22,231 nt of DNA from Thermoplasmata archaeon (GTDB taxonomy: Archaea > Thermoplasmatota > SW-10-69-26 > JACQPN01 > JAJPHT01), in the NCBI GenBank assembly GCA_034667685.1, contig JAXDQU010000015.1, forward strand, positions 1 to 22,231, given 5' to 3'. Every line of letters starts with the position of its first letter. Positions within the stretch are counted from its first letter, which is position 1. Below, piece after piece: positions 2,598 to 14,264 of this stretch. The notes beneath the pieces were generated by a model. That model saw nothing but the letters and a program-made list of their open reading frames with translations, was not told the DNA's origin and searched no databases. The position numbers were made by a program, and so were the translations under genes.

Positions 2598-3599
2598 TCA
2601 CAGGTGCGTGATCGGCCCGAGCCCGTAGAGAGGAAGGAGCGCGAGCAGGAAGCCCAGGATCGCGCCGCCGTTCAGGAGCGGGAGGCCCGCCTGCGGGTTG
2701 CCCTTGAGCACGAACCACATGAGCGCGAGGAAGCCCACGAGGCTGCCGAGGAGCGTGGCGACGGAGACGACCAGCGCGCCCGAGACGCCCGCGAGCGTGA
2801 CGGTCGGGTCGAGGAACGAGAGCGCGGAGACGACGAGCACGCCCGGGATCACGGCGTCGCCCAGGCCCATGAACATGGCCTCGCGCGCCTCCTTCTTCTC
2901 CTCGGGGTCGGGGTTGCGGATCTTGCGCGTCTCCTCGAGGAACGAGTAGCCGCGGTGCTTGGGCACGACGAACATGATGGGGAGGCGCAGCTCCAGCACG
3001 CTGTCGGCCAGGTCGAGCATGTGCTTCGTGCGGTAGACGGCGATGGCGTCGTAGATCGCGAACGCCACGAGGAGGATGAGGCTCGGGATGATGCCGAAGC
3101 TGATGCCGAAGATGCCCGCCGCACCCGCCGCGACGAGGATGCCCACGATATCGATCACGTACCACTCCGGGTAGAACCACAAGAGCGCGGTGAGCGCGAG
3201 CGCCGCGACGCCGCCGGTGATCTCGGCGGCCGACAGGCCCAGGACGAGCGGCGCGCCGCCGGCGGCCTGCGTGAGCAGGGGCGCGGCGACGTAGTAGACG
3301 GTGAGCAGCACGGAGCCCAGCACGATGTACTTGATCAGCACGCGCTTGCCGTACTTCGCGATGAGCAGGATGACGATGGTGAAGACGACGACGATGGCGA
3401 GGTAGATCGGCGCGTTGGCGAGGCTGTTGGGGTCGGCGAACGCGCGGACGTTCTGGCTCGCGAACGTGTAGGAGAAGAGCGCGGCGAGCGCGATGGAGGC
3501 GACGAAGAGCGCGCCCATGAACGCGACCGCCGGGGCGTCGCGGCGCAGGTCCGCGCGCGTCGGGCCGGTCTGCGTCGCGTCCACCACGGGGTTCGTCAT
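2598..3599 (-). CDS. Presenilin-family intramembrane aspartyl protease (archaeal PSH, peptidase A22) (333 aa)
   Basis: About 9 hydrophobic segments, YD motif (AIYDAIAVYRTKHM), GxGD motif (MGLGD) and PAL-equivalent PQAGLPLLN. Confidence 0.93.
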   Translation of the reverse strand: MTNPVVDATQTGPTRADLRRDAPAVAFMGALFVASIALAALFSYTFASQNVRAFADPNSLANAPIYLAIVVVFTIVILLIAKYGKRVLIKYIVLGSVLLTVYYVAAPLLTQAAGGAPLVLGLSAAEITGGVAALALTALLWFYPEWYVIDIVGILVAAGAAGIFGISFGIIPSLILLVAFAIYDAIAVYRTKHMLDLADSVLELRLPIMFVVPKHRGYSFLEETRKIRNPDPEEKKEAREAMFMGLGDAVIPGVLVVSALSFLDPTVTLAGVSGALVVSVATLLGSLVGFLALMWFVLKGNPQAGLPLLNGGAILGFLLALLPLYGLGPITHL

Positions 3600-6336: not shown

Positions 6337-6556
6337 AGCCTCAGCCTCGGCCCCCTTAGCCTCAGCCTCAGCCTCGGCCCTAGCCTCAGTCTGTAGCCCC
6401 GACTCCTCCAGCCACAGAGGACACAGAGGGACGAGAAAAATCGCCTCTGTGATCCTCTGTGTCCTCTGTGGCTGGAGGAGTCAGGGCAACAGGCTAGGGC
6501 TGAGGCCGAGGCTGAGGCTAAGGCTGAGGCTAAGGCTGAGGCTAAGGCCGAGGCTA
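6337..6556. repeat. 220-bp composite palindrome: hexamer tandem arms plus a 29-bp perfect inverted repeat
   Basis: GACTCCTCCAGCCACAGAGGACACAGAGG (6401-6429) pairs perfectly with 6454-6482. Left flank is AGCCTC-type hexamers (6337-6393); right flank is 11 AGGCTG/AGGCTA/AGGCCG-type hexamers (6491-6556). Confidence 0.9.
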
Positions 6557-8376: not shown

Positions 8377-8550
8377 GTGGACGAGCCCATCCTTCATCAA
8401 GCGCCCTCGCCACGCCGCGTGGCGAAGCTTCGCGCGATGGGCAGCGAAGGCCGGCTCCGGCTGGGCCTTGATCTCACCACGCTCTCCATGGAGTTTGCCC
8501 ATCGCGGAGGGAAGGAAGTTTGGCGGCATCCGCCAGCGAAGTCCTCCTGA
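8377..8550 (+). CDS. Small protein (57 aa) upstream of and overlapping a nucleotidyltransferase; candidate antitoxin or partner, not in ORF track
   Basis: Manual translation from GTG 8377: MDEPILHQAPSPRRVAKLRAMGSEGRLRLGLDLTTLSMEFAHRGGKEVWRHPPAKSS*. ATATA at 8351-8355 is ~22-26 nt upstream (leaderless spacing); overlaps the next gene by 31 nt. Confidence 0.6.
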   Translation: MDEPILHQAPSPRRVAKLRAMGSEGRLRLGLDLTTLSMEFAHRGGKEVWRHPPAKSS

Positions 8551-9077
8551 GCCACGCCATCGCCCTCGAGGAGGCCAAGCTCCCCTTCATGATCGTCGGG
8601 GCCTTCGCCGTGATGGCGCACGGGCTCCCCCGGACCTCGGGCGACCTCGACATCGTCGTCCATCTGCCGTTCGAGCACCGGGACCGCGTGCGCGCGATCC
8701 TCGAGAAGCTCGGCGGCACCGGGATCGAGGAACGGCGCGACGAGTGGGGCAAGCGCATCGTGGCCGACACGCCCTCCGGCTTGGAGGTCGAGGTCTTCTT
8801 CACGCCACCGAACGTCGTCTACGACCGGGAATACGCCCGCCGCAGGGCCGTCCCCGTCACGGGTCGCGCGATCCCATTCATCAGCCCCGAAGACCTCGTG
8901 CTCCGCAAGCTCGTCAACACGCGGTTGCGGCGCGGCCTCGACTACGACGACGCCGTCGGCGTGCTTCGCGTCCAGGGGGAAGCGATCGACCTCGCCTACC
9001 TCCGGGCGCACTGTGTCCTCTACCGCGTCTGCGACCTGCTGGAGCGCGCGATCCAGGACGCCGCGGCCTCAGGCTGA
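8520..9077 (+). CDS. Pol-beta superfamily nucleotidyltransferase (DUF6036 / AbiEii-like) (185 aa)
   Basis: PFMIVGAFAVMAHGLPRTSGDLDIVV (G-A...R.T.DxD signature) and SPEDLVLRKL...R...D..D; TTG start preceded by GGAAGG. Confidence 0.82.
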   Translation: MAASASEVLLSHAIALEEAKLPFMIVGAFAVMAHGLPRTSGDLDIVVHLPFEHRDRVRAILEKLGGTGIEERRDEWGKRIVADTPSGLEVEVFFTPPNVVYDREYARRRAVPVTGRAIPFISPEDLVLRKLVNTRLRRGLDYDDAVGVLRVQGEAIDLAYLRAHCVLYRVCDLLERAIQDAAASG

Positions 9078-9581
9078 AGCCGGCGCCGGCTCGGCGCGGA
9101 GCCACGGCGCGGCGAGCAGGAGCCCGAGCGTCCCCGCGAGCAAGGCCAGAATTGCGCTGATGCGCCCCGAGGCGAGCGTCACCATGAGCGCCGCGAAGTA
9201 GCCCGCGCCCGCGAGGAAGAGCCCGGCGCCCAGCCCCGCGCGCGGGCGCTCGGGCGCGACGCTCCAGGCCAGGGCGCCGCCGGCCGCGAGCGTCCACCCC
9301 GCGAAGACGAGGGCGGAGTCCCAGAGCGGGAGGCGCGTGAGGTCGAGCGCCACGTTGAGCGCCCGCAACGTGGCCTGCGCGACGAGGCCGCCTCCGAGCA
9401 TGGCGAGGCCCGTGGGCGAGGGGAAGCGCCACGCGCCCGCGACCATGACCAGCGCCGCGCCGACGCCCAGGGCGTTGACGCCGACGTAGAGCGCGCCCCG
9501 GTCGCCGCCGGTCGCGACGAAGACGACCTGCATCGCGGCGACCATCGCGAGCCCGAACGTGGCGAGGCGACGCGGCTCCAC
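9069..9581 (-). CDS. Multi-pass membrane protein, hypothetical (170 aa)
   Basis: About 6 hydrophobic helices; GTG start; 9-nt convergent overlap with the NTase gene. Confidence 0.75.
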   Translation of the reverse strand: MEPRRLATFGLAMVAAMQVVFVATGGDRGALYVGVNALGVGAALVMVAGAWRFPSPTGLAMLGGGLVAQATLRALNVALDLTRLPLWDSALVFAGWTLAAGGALAWSVAPERPRAGLGAGLFLAGAGYFAALMVTLASGRISAILALLAGTLGLLLAAPWLRAEPAPASA

Positions 9582-9685
9582 GCGTGGCGCACGCCGGGGC
9601 CCGGTCTTAGCCCTAGGCCAGGATTCAGTGCCGTATCGAGATGCTTCATAGCCACGACGCCCTTTGGCAGCGGCGGGAGTGCGAG

Positions 9686-10654
9686 ATGAGGCCCCAGACC
9701 CCCCGAACGATCGTCGCCCTGACGCTTACCGCCGCCGGCATCGTGCTGGCGCTGGTGGGCGTCGGAGCGTCCCTCGGCTTCGTGCCCACCGGCGTGGCGA
9801 CGCCCGCCGCCCAGGCCGCGCCGCGGGCCGACGTCGCGCCCGGCGGCCTGGTGGCCGACGTCGGCGTCACGCTCCACGCGCTGGGCGTCGAGAAGTCGCC
9901 CACGCTCCACCTCGACCCGCAGGCCACGCGCGGCGCCGCGCTGCCCAGCGTCCGGGTCGACCGCAGCGTGGGCACGGCCGGCACGTCCGTCCCCGTCGAC
10001 CTCGACGCCCGCCTCGCGCTCGGGACCGGCGCCGCCACGACCCGCGACGCGCCCGCGGACGCCTCCACCGCGAGCGCGCAGGTCGCCAGCCTCCCCGTGC
10101 TCCACCCCGGGGCGACGGCCGCGGCGGCCGCGGTCGCGTTCGCGGGCGCCGGGCTCCTCGCCTACTTCTGGGCCACGATCAAGAAGGCCATCGCGCTCCC
10201 TCTGGTCGCATTGTACGCCAAGATCAGCCGCGCGGAGGTGTTCGAGAACGCCGTGCGCGAGCGCATCTTCCAGGCGATCCGCGACCACCCGGGCCTCTCC
10301 GCCAGCGACCTCGCGCAGCGCGCGGGCGTCGCGTGGGGCACCACCATCTACCACCTGGACGTGCTCGAGCAGACGCGCATGGTCACGAGCCTCCGCGAGG
10401 GGCGCCACCGCCGCTACTTCGAGAACGGGGCGCAGCTCTCCGCCGCGAAGGAGACCGTCGCGATCCTCCAGAACCCCGTCACGGCGCAGATCGCCCAGAC
10501 CGTGCAGACGATGCCGGGCCTGACGCAGAAGGACCTCGCCCAGGCGACGGGCCTCACGCCCCAGGCGCTCCACTGGCACCTCCTGCGCCTCGTCAAGACC
10601 GGCGTCGTGCGCAAGCAGCGCGAGGGGCGCGTCGTGCGCCACTTCAGCGGCTGA
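9686..10654 (+). CDS. Membrane-anchored winged helix-turn-helix transcriptional regulator with two wHTH domains (~322 aa)
   Basis: N-terminal signal/TM (IVALTLTAAGIVLALVGVGASLGF), Ala/Thr-rich ectodomain, second TM (AAAAAVAFAGAGLLAYFW), then LYAKI...RERIFQAIRDHPGLSASDLA...TIYHLDVL and PGLTQKDLA...LHWHLLRL. GGGAG upstream of ATG 9686. Confidence 0.85.
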   Translation: MRPQTPRTIVALTLTAAGIVLALVGVGASLGFVPTGVATPAAQAAPRADVAPGGLVADVGVTLHALGVEKSPTLHLDPQATRGAALPSVRVDRSVGTAGTSVPVDLDARLALGTGAATTRDAPADASTASAQVASLPVLHPGATAAAAAVAFAGAGLLAYFWATIKKAIALPLVALYAKISRAEVFENAVRERIFQAIRDHPGLSASDLAQRAGVAWGTTIYHLDVLEQTRMVTSLREGRHRRYFENGAQLSAAKETVAILQNPVTAQIAQTVQTMPGLTQKDLAQATGLTPQALHWHLLRLVKTGVVRKQREGRVVRHFSG

Positions 10655-10700
10655 CCCGGCTCCGCATCCACAATGCTGATGAGCCAAGCCCCGCCGTACC

Positions 10701-11804
10701 GTGGCCGTGCAGCGTCGGGCCCCGGTGCTCCTTCTCGTTGTCCTGCTCGCCGCGGTCCCGATGGCGGGCTGCACGGGCCTGGGCTCGGCGACCACGAACG
10801 GCTACGGCGAGGGCGCCTGGACCCTCCACATGATCCAGGCCGACACGCTGCACAACGCGGGCCTGAGCGGCAAGGGGATCAAGGTCGCCATCATCGACAC
10901 GGGCATCGACCTGAACCACGACGAGTTCCGCGGCGTGCAGATCGAGTGGGCCGACCTCGTGAACAACCAGAAGACCGCCTACGACGACAACGGCCACGGC
11001 AGCCACGTCGCGGGCATCGTCGCGGCGCAGGGCACGTGGAAGACCGTGTTCAACGGCTACCGCCTCAAGGGCGTCTCGCCCGGCGTCTCGCTGATCGTCA
11101 TCAAGGCCATCGACGCGTCGGGGCACGGCGACGAGAGCCGCGTCGCGCAGGGCGTCACCACCGCCGTCTCGGCGGGCGCCAACGTCATCGTGCTCTCCCT
11201 GGGCGGCGACACGCGCGCGATCTTCGGCACCAACACCGAGGGCGCCGTGAAGCAGGCCATCTCGCAGGGCGTGTTCGTCGTCGCGGCCGCGGGCAACGTG
11301 GACAAGGACAGCGGCGAGACGAGCTGCACCGTCACGAGCCCCGCGAGCGTCGATGGCGTCATCGCGGTGGGCGCCGTCGCGCGCAACGAGAGCATCGCGT
11401 CGTTCTCGTGCCACGGCACGGGCAGCACCGGAGGCGGGGGCTCGCTGCCCATCGGCGGCCTGCGCAACCCGAGCCCCGGCACCCCCTCGCAGGACCCGGA
11501 CAAGAAGCCCGAGGTCGTGGCGCCCGGCGTTGATATCACCAGCGCGTGGAAGGACGGCGGCTACGCCATCGCGCAGGGCACCAGCCAGGCCGCGCCGATG
11601 GTGGGCGGCATCCTCGCGCTGATGCTGGAGAAGCACCCCGAGCTGAAGAACCGCAATGCCGCCACCGTCGAGCGCGTGAAGGGCGCGCTGGAGGCCAGCT
11701 CGAAGAAGATCGGGCCGCTCGCCGGGCAGGGCGCCACCGCGCACGACGACTCCTATGGATACGGGCTCGTGCAGGGCGACGCGCTGATGCGGGCGCTGGG
11801 CTGA
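10701..11804 (+). CDS. S8 (subtilisin-like) serine peptidase, lipoprotein (367 aa)
   Basis: Catalytic triad motifs IIDTGID, HGSHVAG, GTSQAAP; oxyanion AAAGN; lipobox MAGC after a hydrophobic signal. Confidence 0.93.
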   Translation: MAVQRRAPVLLLVVLLAAVPMAGCTGLGSATTNGYGEGAWTLHMIQADTLHNAGLSGKGIKVAIIDTGIDLNHDEFRGVQIEWADLVNNQKTAYDDNGHGSHVAGIVAAQGTWKTVFNGYRLKGVSPGVSLIVIKAIDASGHGDESRVAQGVTTAVSAGANVIVLSLGGDTRAIFGTNTEGAVKQAISQGVFVVAAAGNVDKDSGETSCTVTSPASVDGVIAVGAVARNESIASFSCHGTGSTGGGGSLPIGGLRNPSPGTPSQDPDKKPEVVAPGVDITSAWKDGGYAIAQGTSQAAPMVGGILALMLEKHPELKNRNAATVERVKGALEASSKKIGPLAGQGATAHDDSYGYGLVQGDALMRALG

Positions 11805-12144: not shown

Positions 12145-12259
12145 GCGCCGCGATCGCACGGCTCCCGCATAGCGTTGGTTGCATCGACGAACGATTCCGC
12201 GCTCCGTTCGAGAACGGCTTTTCCTTCAGGCGGCCACCGCCCGGCTGAAGGTGGTAACC

Positions 12260-12607
12260 GTGAAGGATTCCCTCACCCCCGCTGATCGCCCTGAGGGCGC
12301 GTTTGTCGAAGCCGGCCGCCGCGGCGGCGAGACGGTCAAGGAGCGCTACGGCACGCCCTTCTTCCAGACCATCGGGCGCCTCGGCGCGGAGCGCGGGGCC
12401 GAGAAGGGTGGCGAGGCCCGCAAGAAGGAGCTGGGCTCCGAGGGGTACGCCAACCTGGGACGGATGGGCGGCAAGGCCGTCTTCGAGAAGCGCGGCCGCG
12501 AGCACATGCGCGAGATCGGCCGCAAGGGTGGCAAGGCGCGCGTGGCGCAGAGCAAGGCCGTGGAGTCGAACGCCTTGCCTGCGCCCAGCCCTGAGGTCGA
12601 ATCGTGA
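12260..12607 (+). CDS. KGG-repeat general stress protein (GsiB/Em/YciG-like) (~115 aa)
   Basis: Repeats EAGRRGGE, IGRLG, LGRMGG, HMREIGRKGG; GTG 12260 preceded by AGGTGG. Confidence 0.8.
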   Translation: MKDSLTPADRPEGAFVEAGRRGGETVKERYGTPFFQTIGRLGAERGAEKGGEARKKELGSEGYANLGRMGGKAVFEKRGREHMREIGRKGGKARVAQSKAVESNALPAPSPEVES

Positions 12608-12900
12608 GCGAGGACGCGCCTGAGACGAAGCGCCCCATGACGCTGGCCGAAGCCGGGCGGAAGGGGGGCGAGAAGGTCAAGAAGGAGCGCGGCCTCGACT
12701 TCTACGCCGAGATCGGGCGCAAGGGCGGGCGCCGTGTTGCCAAGGAGCACGGCCCGTCGTTCTACGCCGAGATCGGCCGGAAGGGGGGCGAAGCCCGCAG
12801 GGCTCCGCCCGAGGGTGGCGTCCGGAGCGAAGCTGCGGGCGGCACGCGTCGGAAGGACTCGAACGCGCCCTTCGCCGAGGACAAGGACGAGAACGCCTGA
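12604..12900 (+). CDS. KGG-repeat general stress protein (98 aa)
   Basis: MTLAEAGRKGGE and two copies of FYAEIGRKGG; GTGA start/stop overlap with the upstream gene. Confidence 0.88.
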   Translation: MSEDAPETKRPMTLAEAGRKGGEKVKKERGLDFYAEIGRKGGRRVAKEHGPSFYAEIGRKGGEARRAPPEGGVRSEAAGGTRRKDSNAPFAEDKDENA

Positions 12901-13316: not shown

Positions 13317-14264
13317 ATGCCGCCCCAAGACAAGAAGGATGCCCAGGAACAGGTCGAAGAGATCACCCAGTGCCCCGAATGCGGGTCGAAGCAGATCGCC
13401 CGCGACTACGAACGAGGCGAGCTGGTGTGCCAATCCTGCGGCCTCGTCCTGGACGAGCACTTCATCGACCAAGGGCCCGAGTGGCGCGCCTTCGACCACG
13501 AGCAGCGCGAGAAGCGCGCCCGCGTCGGCGCCCCCATGACGTACACGATCCACGACAAGGGTCTCTCCACGGAGATCGGCTGGCGCAACAAGGACTCGTA
13601 CGGCAAGAACATCCCCACGAAGTCCCGCGCGCAGCTCTACCGCCTCCGCAAGTGGCAGCGCCGCATCCGTGTCAGCAACGCGACCGAGCGCAACCTCGCC
13701 TTCGCCCTCTCCGAGCTGGACCGCATGGCCAGCCGCATGGGTCTCCCCCGCAACGTGCGTGAGACCGCGGCCATGGTCTACCGGCGCGCCGTGCAGAAGA
13801 ACCTCATCCGCGGCCGTTCGATCGAAGGTGTCGCCGCGGCCTCGCTGTACGCCGCGTGCCGCCAGTGCAACGTGCCCCGCACGCTCGACGAGATCGCGGA
13901 CGCTTCCCGCGTGAGCAGGAAGGAGATCGGCCGCACGTACCGCTTCATCGCGCGTGAGCTGAAGCTGAAGCTGATGCCCACGAGCCCGATCGACTACATC
14001 CCGCGCTTCTGCTCCGAGCTGAAGCTCAGCGGCGAGATCCAGGCGAAGGCCGTGGAGATCCTCAAGCAGGCCGCCGACAAGGAGCTGACGTCGGGTCGCG
14101 GCCCGACCGGTGTCGCGGCGGCGGCGCTCTACATCTCGTCGATCCTGTGCGGCGAGCGCCGCACGCAGCGCGAGGTGGCCGACGTGGCGGGCGTGACCGA
14201 GGTCACGATCCGCAACCGGTACAAGGAGCTCGCCGAGAAGCTCGACATCGACATCATCCTGTGA
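13317..14264 (+). CDS. tfb: Transcription initiation factor IIB (315 aa)
   Basis: Zn ribbon CPECGS...CQSCG, B-reader GPEWRAF, two cyclin repeats ([28 protein letters not shown]), [12 protein letters not shown]. Confidence 0.98.

Follow-up and report, generated by a model that had tools for sequence, protein, structure and literature searches.

Transmembrane transcription regulators (TTRs) combine a DNA-binding domain with a transmembrane (TM) region, and the census by Demey et al. (2023, PMC10269533) counts 4 ± 2 of them per archaeal genome. The same text names ToxR, TcpP and CadC as bacterial examples, describes archaeal members that regulate motility and pilin genes, and reports that a partner protein modulates the proteolysis of some bacterial TTRs. 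The present analysis concerns a membrane-tethered regulator with two winged helix-turn-helix (wHTH) domains, termed REG, and the adjoining subtilase gene, termed S8, on a 22,231-nucleotide stretch of DNA from a Thermoplasmata archaeon (the window), which is contig C15 of the source genome G000 (3.48 Mb, 124 contigs, 99% complete). Like the TTRs, REG is a single chain that contains both a DNA-binding domain and a TM region, and its extracytoplasmic part presumably acts as the sensor. No characterised TTR shares its predicted plan, in which a sensor at the N-terminus precedes a type I TM helix (TM2) and a doubled ArsR/MarR-type wHTH lies C-terminally behind that helix; in ToxR-type regulators an OmpR-type domain forms the N-terminus and the orientation is type II. 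We give about an even chance to the reading that REG is a one-component membrane regulator of the TTR class, locally coupled to the neighbouring S8 gene and most simply its local regulator. A first-pass annotation of the window had mentioned such a regulator, neighbouring or controlling the protease, as the simpler alternative to a proteolytic circuit, and it is the better-supported reading.

Precedents for such a circuit link a tethered protein to successive proteases. In the SREBP/ATF6 system, as in the window pair, a subtilase is combined with a membrane-tethered transcription factor, and REG with an uncleaved first helix would resemble SREBP in forming a hairpin of two TM helices joined by an extracytoplasmic loop. 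SREBP releases an N-terminal factor, and there an M50 metalloprotease makes the second cut in a TM helix of type II orientation, whereas the REG factor is C-terminal; moreover, the window S8 is nearest to the classical subtilisins and is not co-distributed with REG. With the γ-secretase system (Notch, APP) and the presenilin homolog (PSH) of Methanoculleus marisnigri the locus shares a predicted type I TM2 and a genome-encoded PSH equivalog, but here PSH has no genomic, syntenic or phyletic link to REG-S8. Bacterial anti-sigma cascades of regulated intramembrane proteolysis (RIP), namely RseA-DegS-RseP and RsiW-PrsW-RasP, involve type II substrates and site-2 protease (S2P). As would hold for REG and S8 under a RIP model, an extracytoplasmic site-1 protease starts the transmembrane signal to transcription; their substrates sequester a sigma factor, whereas REG is predicted to bind DNA itself, and to our knowledge archaea have no sigma factors.

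REG occupies positions 9686-10654 of the forward strand and encodes 322 aa plus stop. Its frame is stop-free over 9641-10654 (337 aa), and the first-pass annotation was right to start the gene at the ATG at 9686: all 10 REG orthologs align from this Met, and the ATG at 9641 falls within the BRE/TATA-like element of REG. A GGGAG-type Shine-Dalgarno-like stretch precedes the ATG at 9686. In the numbering of the 337-aa frame, the Pfam matches HTH_24 (1.1e-16) and HTH_HVO_0163_N (7e-12) cover residues ~203-262 and ~283-329, and Kyte-Doolittle hydropathy marks hydrophobic segments at 24-42 and 158-176, the second containing an Ala/Gly run. Pfam and NCBIfam matches and the ortholog alignment were combined with an AlphaFold2 (AF2) model built from 52 homologs (mean predicted local distance difference test, pLDDT, 81), which replaces a run with 10 sequences. 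The ArsR/SmtB subfamily model NF033788 clears its cut-off of 55 bits only narrowly, with 56.9 bits summed over two stretches, and REG is filed under the winged-helix fold only, not as a metal sensor.

In the 322-aa numbering, the chain opens with a hydrophobic helix at aa 6-30 (9701-9775, +; hydropathy and AF2), preceded by two Arg, which is a putative signal peptide or first TM anchor. The ectodomain follows, and then TM2 at aa 141-160 (10106-10165, +), an Ala/Gly-rich helix in both hydropathy and AF2, with Lys-Lys directly behind it. A modelled juxtamembrane helix at aa 162-177 (10169-10216, +) ends in LYAKI and leads into the two winged-helix domains at aa ~185-247 and ~255-322 (10238-10651, +; pLDDT 94-98). 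These domains are probably cytoplasmic because Lys/Arg cluster on their side of TM2 (positive-inside rule); the paralogs inspected share with REG the Lys/Arg behind TM2. The architecture described in the first pass, with two hydrophobic helices, an ectodomain, an Ala/Gly-rich TM2 and tandem wHTH domains on the cytoplasmic side, is thereby upheld, and REG has the recognised DNA-binding domain and at least one TM region of a TTR.

The ectodomain itself is present as claimed, but appears to be more than a spacer. Within its ~110 aa, AF2 predicts a small beta-rich domain at aa ~50-122 (9833-10051, +; pLDDT 78-86), flanked by linkers at aa 31-49 and 125-139 that have pLDDT values below 50 in the 52-sequence model and are probably flexible. 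In the run with 10 sequences the ectodomain reached a pLDDT of only 24-36. Its sequence is poorly conserved, with P87 as the sole invariant residue across 10 orthologs; it had no match in Pfam and none in the ESM Atlas by features or structure, and in fold searches with REG the matches were filled by the wHTH domains.

REG belongs to a large family in its own genome. A search with whole REG gave 55 matches, and tblastn with the TM2 and wHTH part gave 53 open reading frames (ORFs); in REG and 31 others, hydrophobic segments precede the wHTH pair. With ~32 such tethered copies against the archaeal mean given above, the genome is strongly enriched in TTRs. The ectodomains of the tethered paralogs range from ~30 to 700 aa, many with classical signal peptides. 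Pfam finds a C-terminal wHTH in all 31 other members and an ectodomain family in none of them except one (L107, Ig-like/NPCBM_assoc). The motif [LF][YF]x[KRH][ILVM] at the cytoplasmic TM end, present in 24 of 36 long family ORFs versus 2 of 17 short ones, is a sequence hallmark of the tethered members; the REG instance, LYAKI, lies at 10205-10219 of the window. Some tethered paralogs are clustered, for example at C11:38761-47459, C54:14049-17799, C89:29520-33655 and C39:26711-35980, and some adjoin secreted BNR, CarboxypepD_reg, fn3 or Ig-like proteins. A long run of GCTGAG-type hexamer repeats stands directly upstream of a soluble tandem-wHTH paralog on contig C99, ~110 nt before position 6421.

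The S8 gene starts with GTG and lies at 10701-11804 on the same strand, separated from REG by a gap of 46 nt (10655-10700). It matches Peptidase_S8 at 1.4e-44 (153 bits against a cut-off of 21.8). The catalytic triad D66, H99 and S295, the oxyanion residue N199 and the lipobox Cys24 (codon 10770-10772, +) are invariant in all 20 aligned orthologs, and with its signal peptide and lipobox S8 is a predicted lipid-anchored surface protein, which bears out the first-pass description of a lipoprotein subtilase 46 nt downstream. Its nearest solved relative is subtilisin Carlsberg (4.6e-34). Like subtilisin Carlsberg and BPN' (MEROPS S8A), S8 has the D-H-S triad and the oxyanion Asn; it differs in its predicted lipid anchor in place of secretion, in a Gly/Pro-rich insert of ~30 residues between residues ~240 and 270, and in the I9 propeptide, for which Pfam gave no match. 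Residue 8 of mature subtilisin aligns to residue 42 of S8, which leaves no room for an I9 prodomain; this alignment begins 18 residues past Cys24, and the start of the mature domain is also put at about 11 residues past it. The I9 propeptide is typical of secreted subtilisins, not defining. The window lipobox reads M-A-G-C, non-canonical at -3, while most orthologs have L-S/A-G-C; the motif is given as [LVI][ASTVI][GAS]C in PMC12462473, and as in the archaeal lipobox proteins treated there, the signal peptide of the window S8 ends in a near-canonical lipobox.

The relation between the two genes was followed through related genomes, where G-numbers denote GTDB species genomes and L-numbers denote fetched loci, including metagenome contigs, several of which are the same species as GTDB genomes by matching identities and are non-independent. 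REG orthologs, with the ectodomain aligned, occur in 9 of 40 related species at 39-68% identity, and an S8 ortholog lies near REG in 8 of these 9. Conservation of this adjacency was a check that the first-pass annotation had itself proposed, and REG-S8 proximity is conserved within one family-level clade. With this result and the predicted cytoplasmic wHTH domains, none of the outcomes named in the first pass as refuting its model was encountered. In four species (G001, G002, G004, G006) S8 is directly downstream of REG on the same strand, the G006 contig ending inside S8, and in G003 it keeps that strand with an 825-aa paralog inserted between the two genes. S8 adjoins REG in convergent orientation in G007 and G008, and in G011 two REG copies and a methyltransferase are followed by a convergent S8. 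Ortholog-level REG matches were found in 11 of 14 metagenome loci, of which 8 have S8 nearby; L087, L092 and L093 are further cases of proximity, and the L088 and L095 contigs end too early for this to be judged. In G007 and G008, S8 remains within 550 nt of REG despite inversion, and the gene for a CBS-domain pyridoxal phosphate (PLP) enzyme (CBS-PALP), used as a control, is 3-5 kb off with genes between. The adjacency has thus persisted through inversions, something that inheritance of a plain operon would not call for. The 825-aa paralog, at L046 (G003:C44) of the closest relative, combines tandem wHTH domains and a TM helix with a large ectodomain.

S8 is older than REG and has a wider distribution. 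Its orthologs are present in 19 of 21 genomes of the class at 43-84% identity, and no REG-like gene was found near S8 at E <= 1e-5 in any of the 12 non-adjacent loci, of which 3-11 kb were fetched. The surroundings of S8 were scanned with Pfam in 9 of these 12 loci (L075-L083, from G005, G009, G010, G013, G015, G016, G017 and G020), covering the nearest-flank ORFs, 32 of 54 called. S8 is flanked by DUF1611 in 7 of the 9 and by Amidohydro_3 in 5; the G009 locus has an M28 peptidase and an MR_MLE enzyme as well, and a double-zinc-ribbon gene is present in three. In the window's genome DUF1611 is on another contig. These neighbours point to a peptide-scavenging role of S8, and the S8-DUF1611-Amidohydro_3 cluster may serve the scavenging of peptides or D-amino acids, DUF1611 being presumably DgcN of D-glutamate catabolism. 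S8 thus looks like a scavenging enzyme of general function on the cell surface whose pairing with REG arose in one clade. Since its context in the outgroup is different and strongly conserved, S8 appears to have moved to or been captured beside REG, or the reverse, and then to have been kept there.

Both genes carry promoter-like signals of their own. The BRE/TATA-like element of REG at 9631-9652 (+) is kept in the upstream regions of all 10 orthologs, where it sits 35-45 nt before the start, and it resembles other promoters of the window, such as those of PSH and ACAD. The element of S8 at 10662-10685 (+) has related elements upstream of S8 in G002, G003, G007 and L087; each gene therefore has a separate conserved BRE/TATA-like element, and the position of the S8 element ~20 nt before the GTG suggests a separate, near-leaderless S8 transcript. 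A scan for bacterial-type promoters and terminators between REG and S8, which is of little value for an archaeon, found none. By eye, no common private motif was seen in the upstream regions of the paralogs.

The topology, DNA binding, target gene and any signal that we infer for REG combine into a simple scheme, set beside what is observed: the anatomy of the domains, the intact lipobox and catalytic residues, the expansion of the paralogs and the proximity conserved within the clade. The ectodomain would face outward on flexible tethers, and TM2 would link it to the cytoplasmic ArsR/MarR-type wHTH pair; with two wHTH domains in one chain, REG could bind a bipartite DNA site without dimerising. 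The REG orthogroup, which is part of the lineage-specific expansion of about 32 members with differing ectodomains, would have become the local partner of S8. Most likely, REG would then respond to a cue at the surface or outside the cell that is connected with proteolysis or the supply of peptides and, still in the membrane, would adjust transcription from its own promoter, the S8 promoter or both.

Several results weigh against local control of S8 by REG. The fold of the ectodomain was predicted within the whole-protein model only. The adjacency is seen only in genomes from f1 and f4, two related families within a single order; in G005, of the same family, REG and S8 are on different contigs with no partner in their flanks, and in metagenome locus L090 REG is followed by PheRS alpha with no S8 beside it. 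The control gene CBS-PALP is likewise retained near REG in 6 of 9 relatives, so the adjacency may be mere synteny. At the promoters, comparison of the REG and S8 regions found no REG-specific operator, the S8-type upstream element also occurs in G005, G013 and G014, which have no REG-like gene near S8, and in G007, G008 and G011 the S8 promoter is at the end far from REG. A short motif common to the two elements, CCGYATCSASA, has 29 occurrences in the genome, mostly inside genes, and an extended form of the pattern has 7 matches. This motif was rejected as the REG operator because genome-wide it is mostly coding and the S8 element is present without REG nearby.

Much of this is what would be expected if the two genes had no functional link, with REG lying in an inherited block of CBS, REG, S8 and further genes up to a methyltransferase while regulating distant genes in response to an unrelated cue. 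Beyond the retention of CBS-PALP, a homolog of the window's methyltransferase is found in the G011 block, and the neighbours of the other paralogs are heterogeneous; the restriction to f1 and f4, the cases of G005 and L090 and the missing shared operator fit equally well. Against mere inheritance, S8 stays within those 550 nt of REG through the G007 and G008 inversions while CBS drifts away, and the different, strongly conserved outgroup context of S8 speaks for a pairing that was acquired and then kept. We consider the absence of any link rather unlikely.

The circuit put forward in the first-pass annotation would have S8 cut a linker of the ectodomain, after which PSH or a rhomboid would cleave the TM2 stub and free the soluble tandem wHTH. 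It is physically plausible in view of the orientation, the flexible tethers and the shared membrane face: REG and S8 are conserved neighbours, the ectodomain and the S8 protein with its invariant lipobox Cys would lie on the same outer face of the membrane, probably flexible linkers flank the modelled ectodomain core on both sides, and TM2 is Ala/Gly-rich. From general knowledge of the families, an N-out/C-in TM2 suits presenilin-type or rhomboid proteases, and the genome encodes one PSH together with two rhomboids above the Pfam cut-off and three M50 homologs. Archaeal presenilin-family proteases also lack a known role, to judge from the Haloferax volcanii member of the SPP/PSH family, whose function is listed as 'Unknown' in a 2022 review (PMC9263693).

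The comparative evidence runs the other way, and such a cascade is very improbable. The PSH gene is where the first pass placed it, at 2598-3599 on the reverse strand, with NF041679 at 309.2 bits (cut-off 125, 2.8e-92) and the YD and GLGD motifs in its translation. "Nearby" describes it poorly, however: it lies ~6 kb from REG on the opposite strand, with four to five unrelated genes between, namely those for a penicillin amidase, a small ORF, the CBS-domain PLP enzyme, a nucleotidyltransferase and a 170-aa membrane protein. Co-occurrence, which had been proposed as a check, yields no support, for the NF041679 model has matches in 39 of 41 genomes, usually one each, and 13 of the 15 genomes that lack a REG-family hit at 1e-20 are among them. 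In six relatives (G001, G003, G004, G007, G008, G011) PSH and REG-S8 lie on separate contigs, and PSH was found in none of the nine REG ortholog loci (5-20 kb). Its proximity and co-occurrence are uninformative because it is near-universal and unlinked to the ortholog loci, the part of the circuit that involves PSH has no specific support, and its nearness to REG here is best read as chance.

For the protease assigned to the first cut the evidence is mixed. S8 lies near REG in 8 of the 9 relatives with a REG ortholog, but it is probably not a dedicated site-1 protease, because its ortholog occurs without a REG-like neighbour in 12 of 12 other loci, where it has a different conserved context. 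The neighbours of the other 31 tethered paralogs were also scanned (108 of 177 called ORFs, the paralogs themselves and most distant ORFs having been dropped). No S8 was found among these 108, and the only peptidases were a weak M10-like match, an HtrA-like Trypsin_2-PDZ protein and a U32 peptidase; a general pairing of TTRs with proteases was rejected on this basis. Were proteolytic release the general mode of the family, it would not depend on an adjoining sheddase. In the precedent of the SREBP site-1 protease (S1P), moreover, the partner is S2P and not presenilin, and the substrates are of type II or hairpin form. Studied prokaryotic TTRs act while membrane-bound and are inactivated by proteolysis (PMC10269533). 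ToxR and TcpP are such cases.

Hardly credible, finally, is direct control of the enzyme, in which the REG ectodomain would bind the prodomain-less S8 as inhibitor, folding helper or activity sensor and signal the occupancy of the protease through the membrane without being degraded: the missing I9 propeptide, the small folded ectodomain of the model and the conserved neighbourhood would suit it, but in 10 genomes the S8 ortholog has no REG-like gene beside it, so that S8 folds and works without an adjacent REG, and an ectodomain with one invariant residue among 10 orthologs would be unusual for a specific partner.

Archaeal transmembrane signalling is poorly understood, and the window's genome devotes ~32 genes to a design of a variable ectodomain, one TM helix and a wHTH pair. 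None of these Thermoplasmatota regulators is known to have been studied; a literature search on archaeal membrane-bound wHTH factors found the TTR census and nothing on the REG family, and one on HVO_0163 yielded a single proteomics paper, an unrelated one. Few members of the family have, like REG in the REG-S8 pair, a conserved and functionally suggestive neighbour, and since REG is small (322 aa, with an ectodomain core of ~70 aa) it offers a practical entry point to whether the family signals from the membrane or through cleavage. If the cleavage cascade were true, it would be the first such signalling pathway described in Archaea and would give the first natural substrate of a prokaryotic presenilin, a physiological substrate for archaeal presenilin-type or rhomboid proteases; the ~30 sister regulators of this genome might then work on the same pattern. 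On present evidence, REG is an ordinary member of the catalogued TTR class and the proximity of PSH is coincidental.

Unusual forms of PSH were observed in several other genomes of the same phylum. In G023 (C11), G027 (C58), G034 (C52:19928-21880) and G036 (C5) the PSH model matches in two pieces (~2-90 and ~90-280), ~0.7-1.1 kb apart within one open frame of 534-785 aa, and in G025 (C9) and G037 (C88) the C-terminal piece alone is listed, also in a long frame. These split matches suggest a presenilin homolog with a large insertion.

The window has a G+C content of 67-76%, and because of this high value genes were picked by codon-position G+C and then checked with Pfam. Between the CBS gene and the REG block, a nucleotidyltransferase with weak AbiEii / NTP_transf_5 matches (8520-9077, +) looks like a local insertion, since in G002 CBS is followed directly by REG. 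Divergent from REG, an ORF at 9069-9581 (-) encodes, by translation, a polytopic membrane protein of 170 aa without a Pfam match. By tblastn it also neighbours REG in L046 and L086 (both from one G003 contig, 64% identity), L087 (48%) and L047 (G004, 41%), with a weak match in L048 (G001). A Pfam scan places a TFB gene at 13317-14264, which marks the organism as archaeal. The DNA of the window is present in four soil or rhizosphere DNA runs, with no RNA run among those listed, and LEA_5 and KGG stress-repeat matches in two adjoining small hydrophilic proteins at 12179-12900 (+) mark these, by their sequences, as desiccation or stress-type proteins of a soil archaeon.

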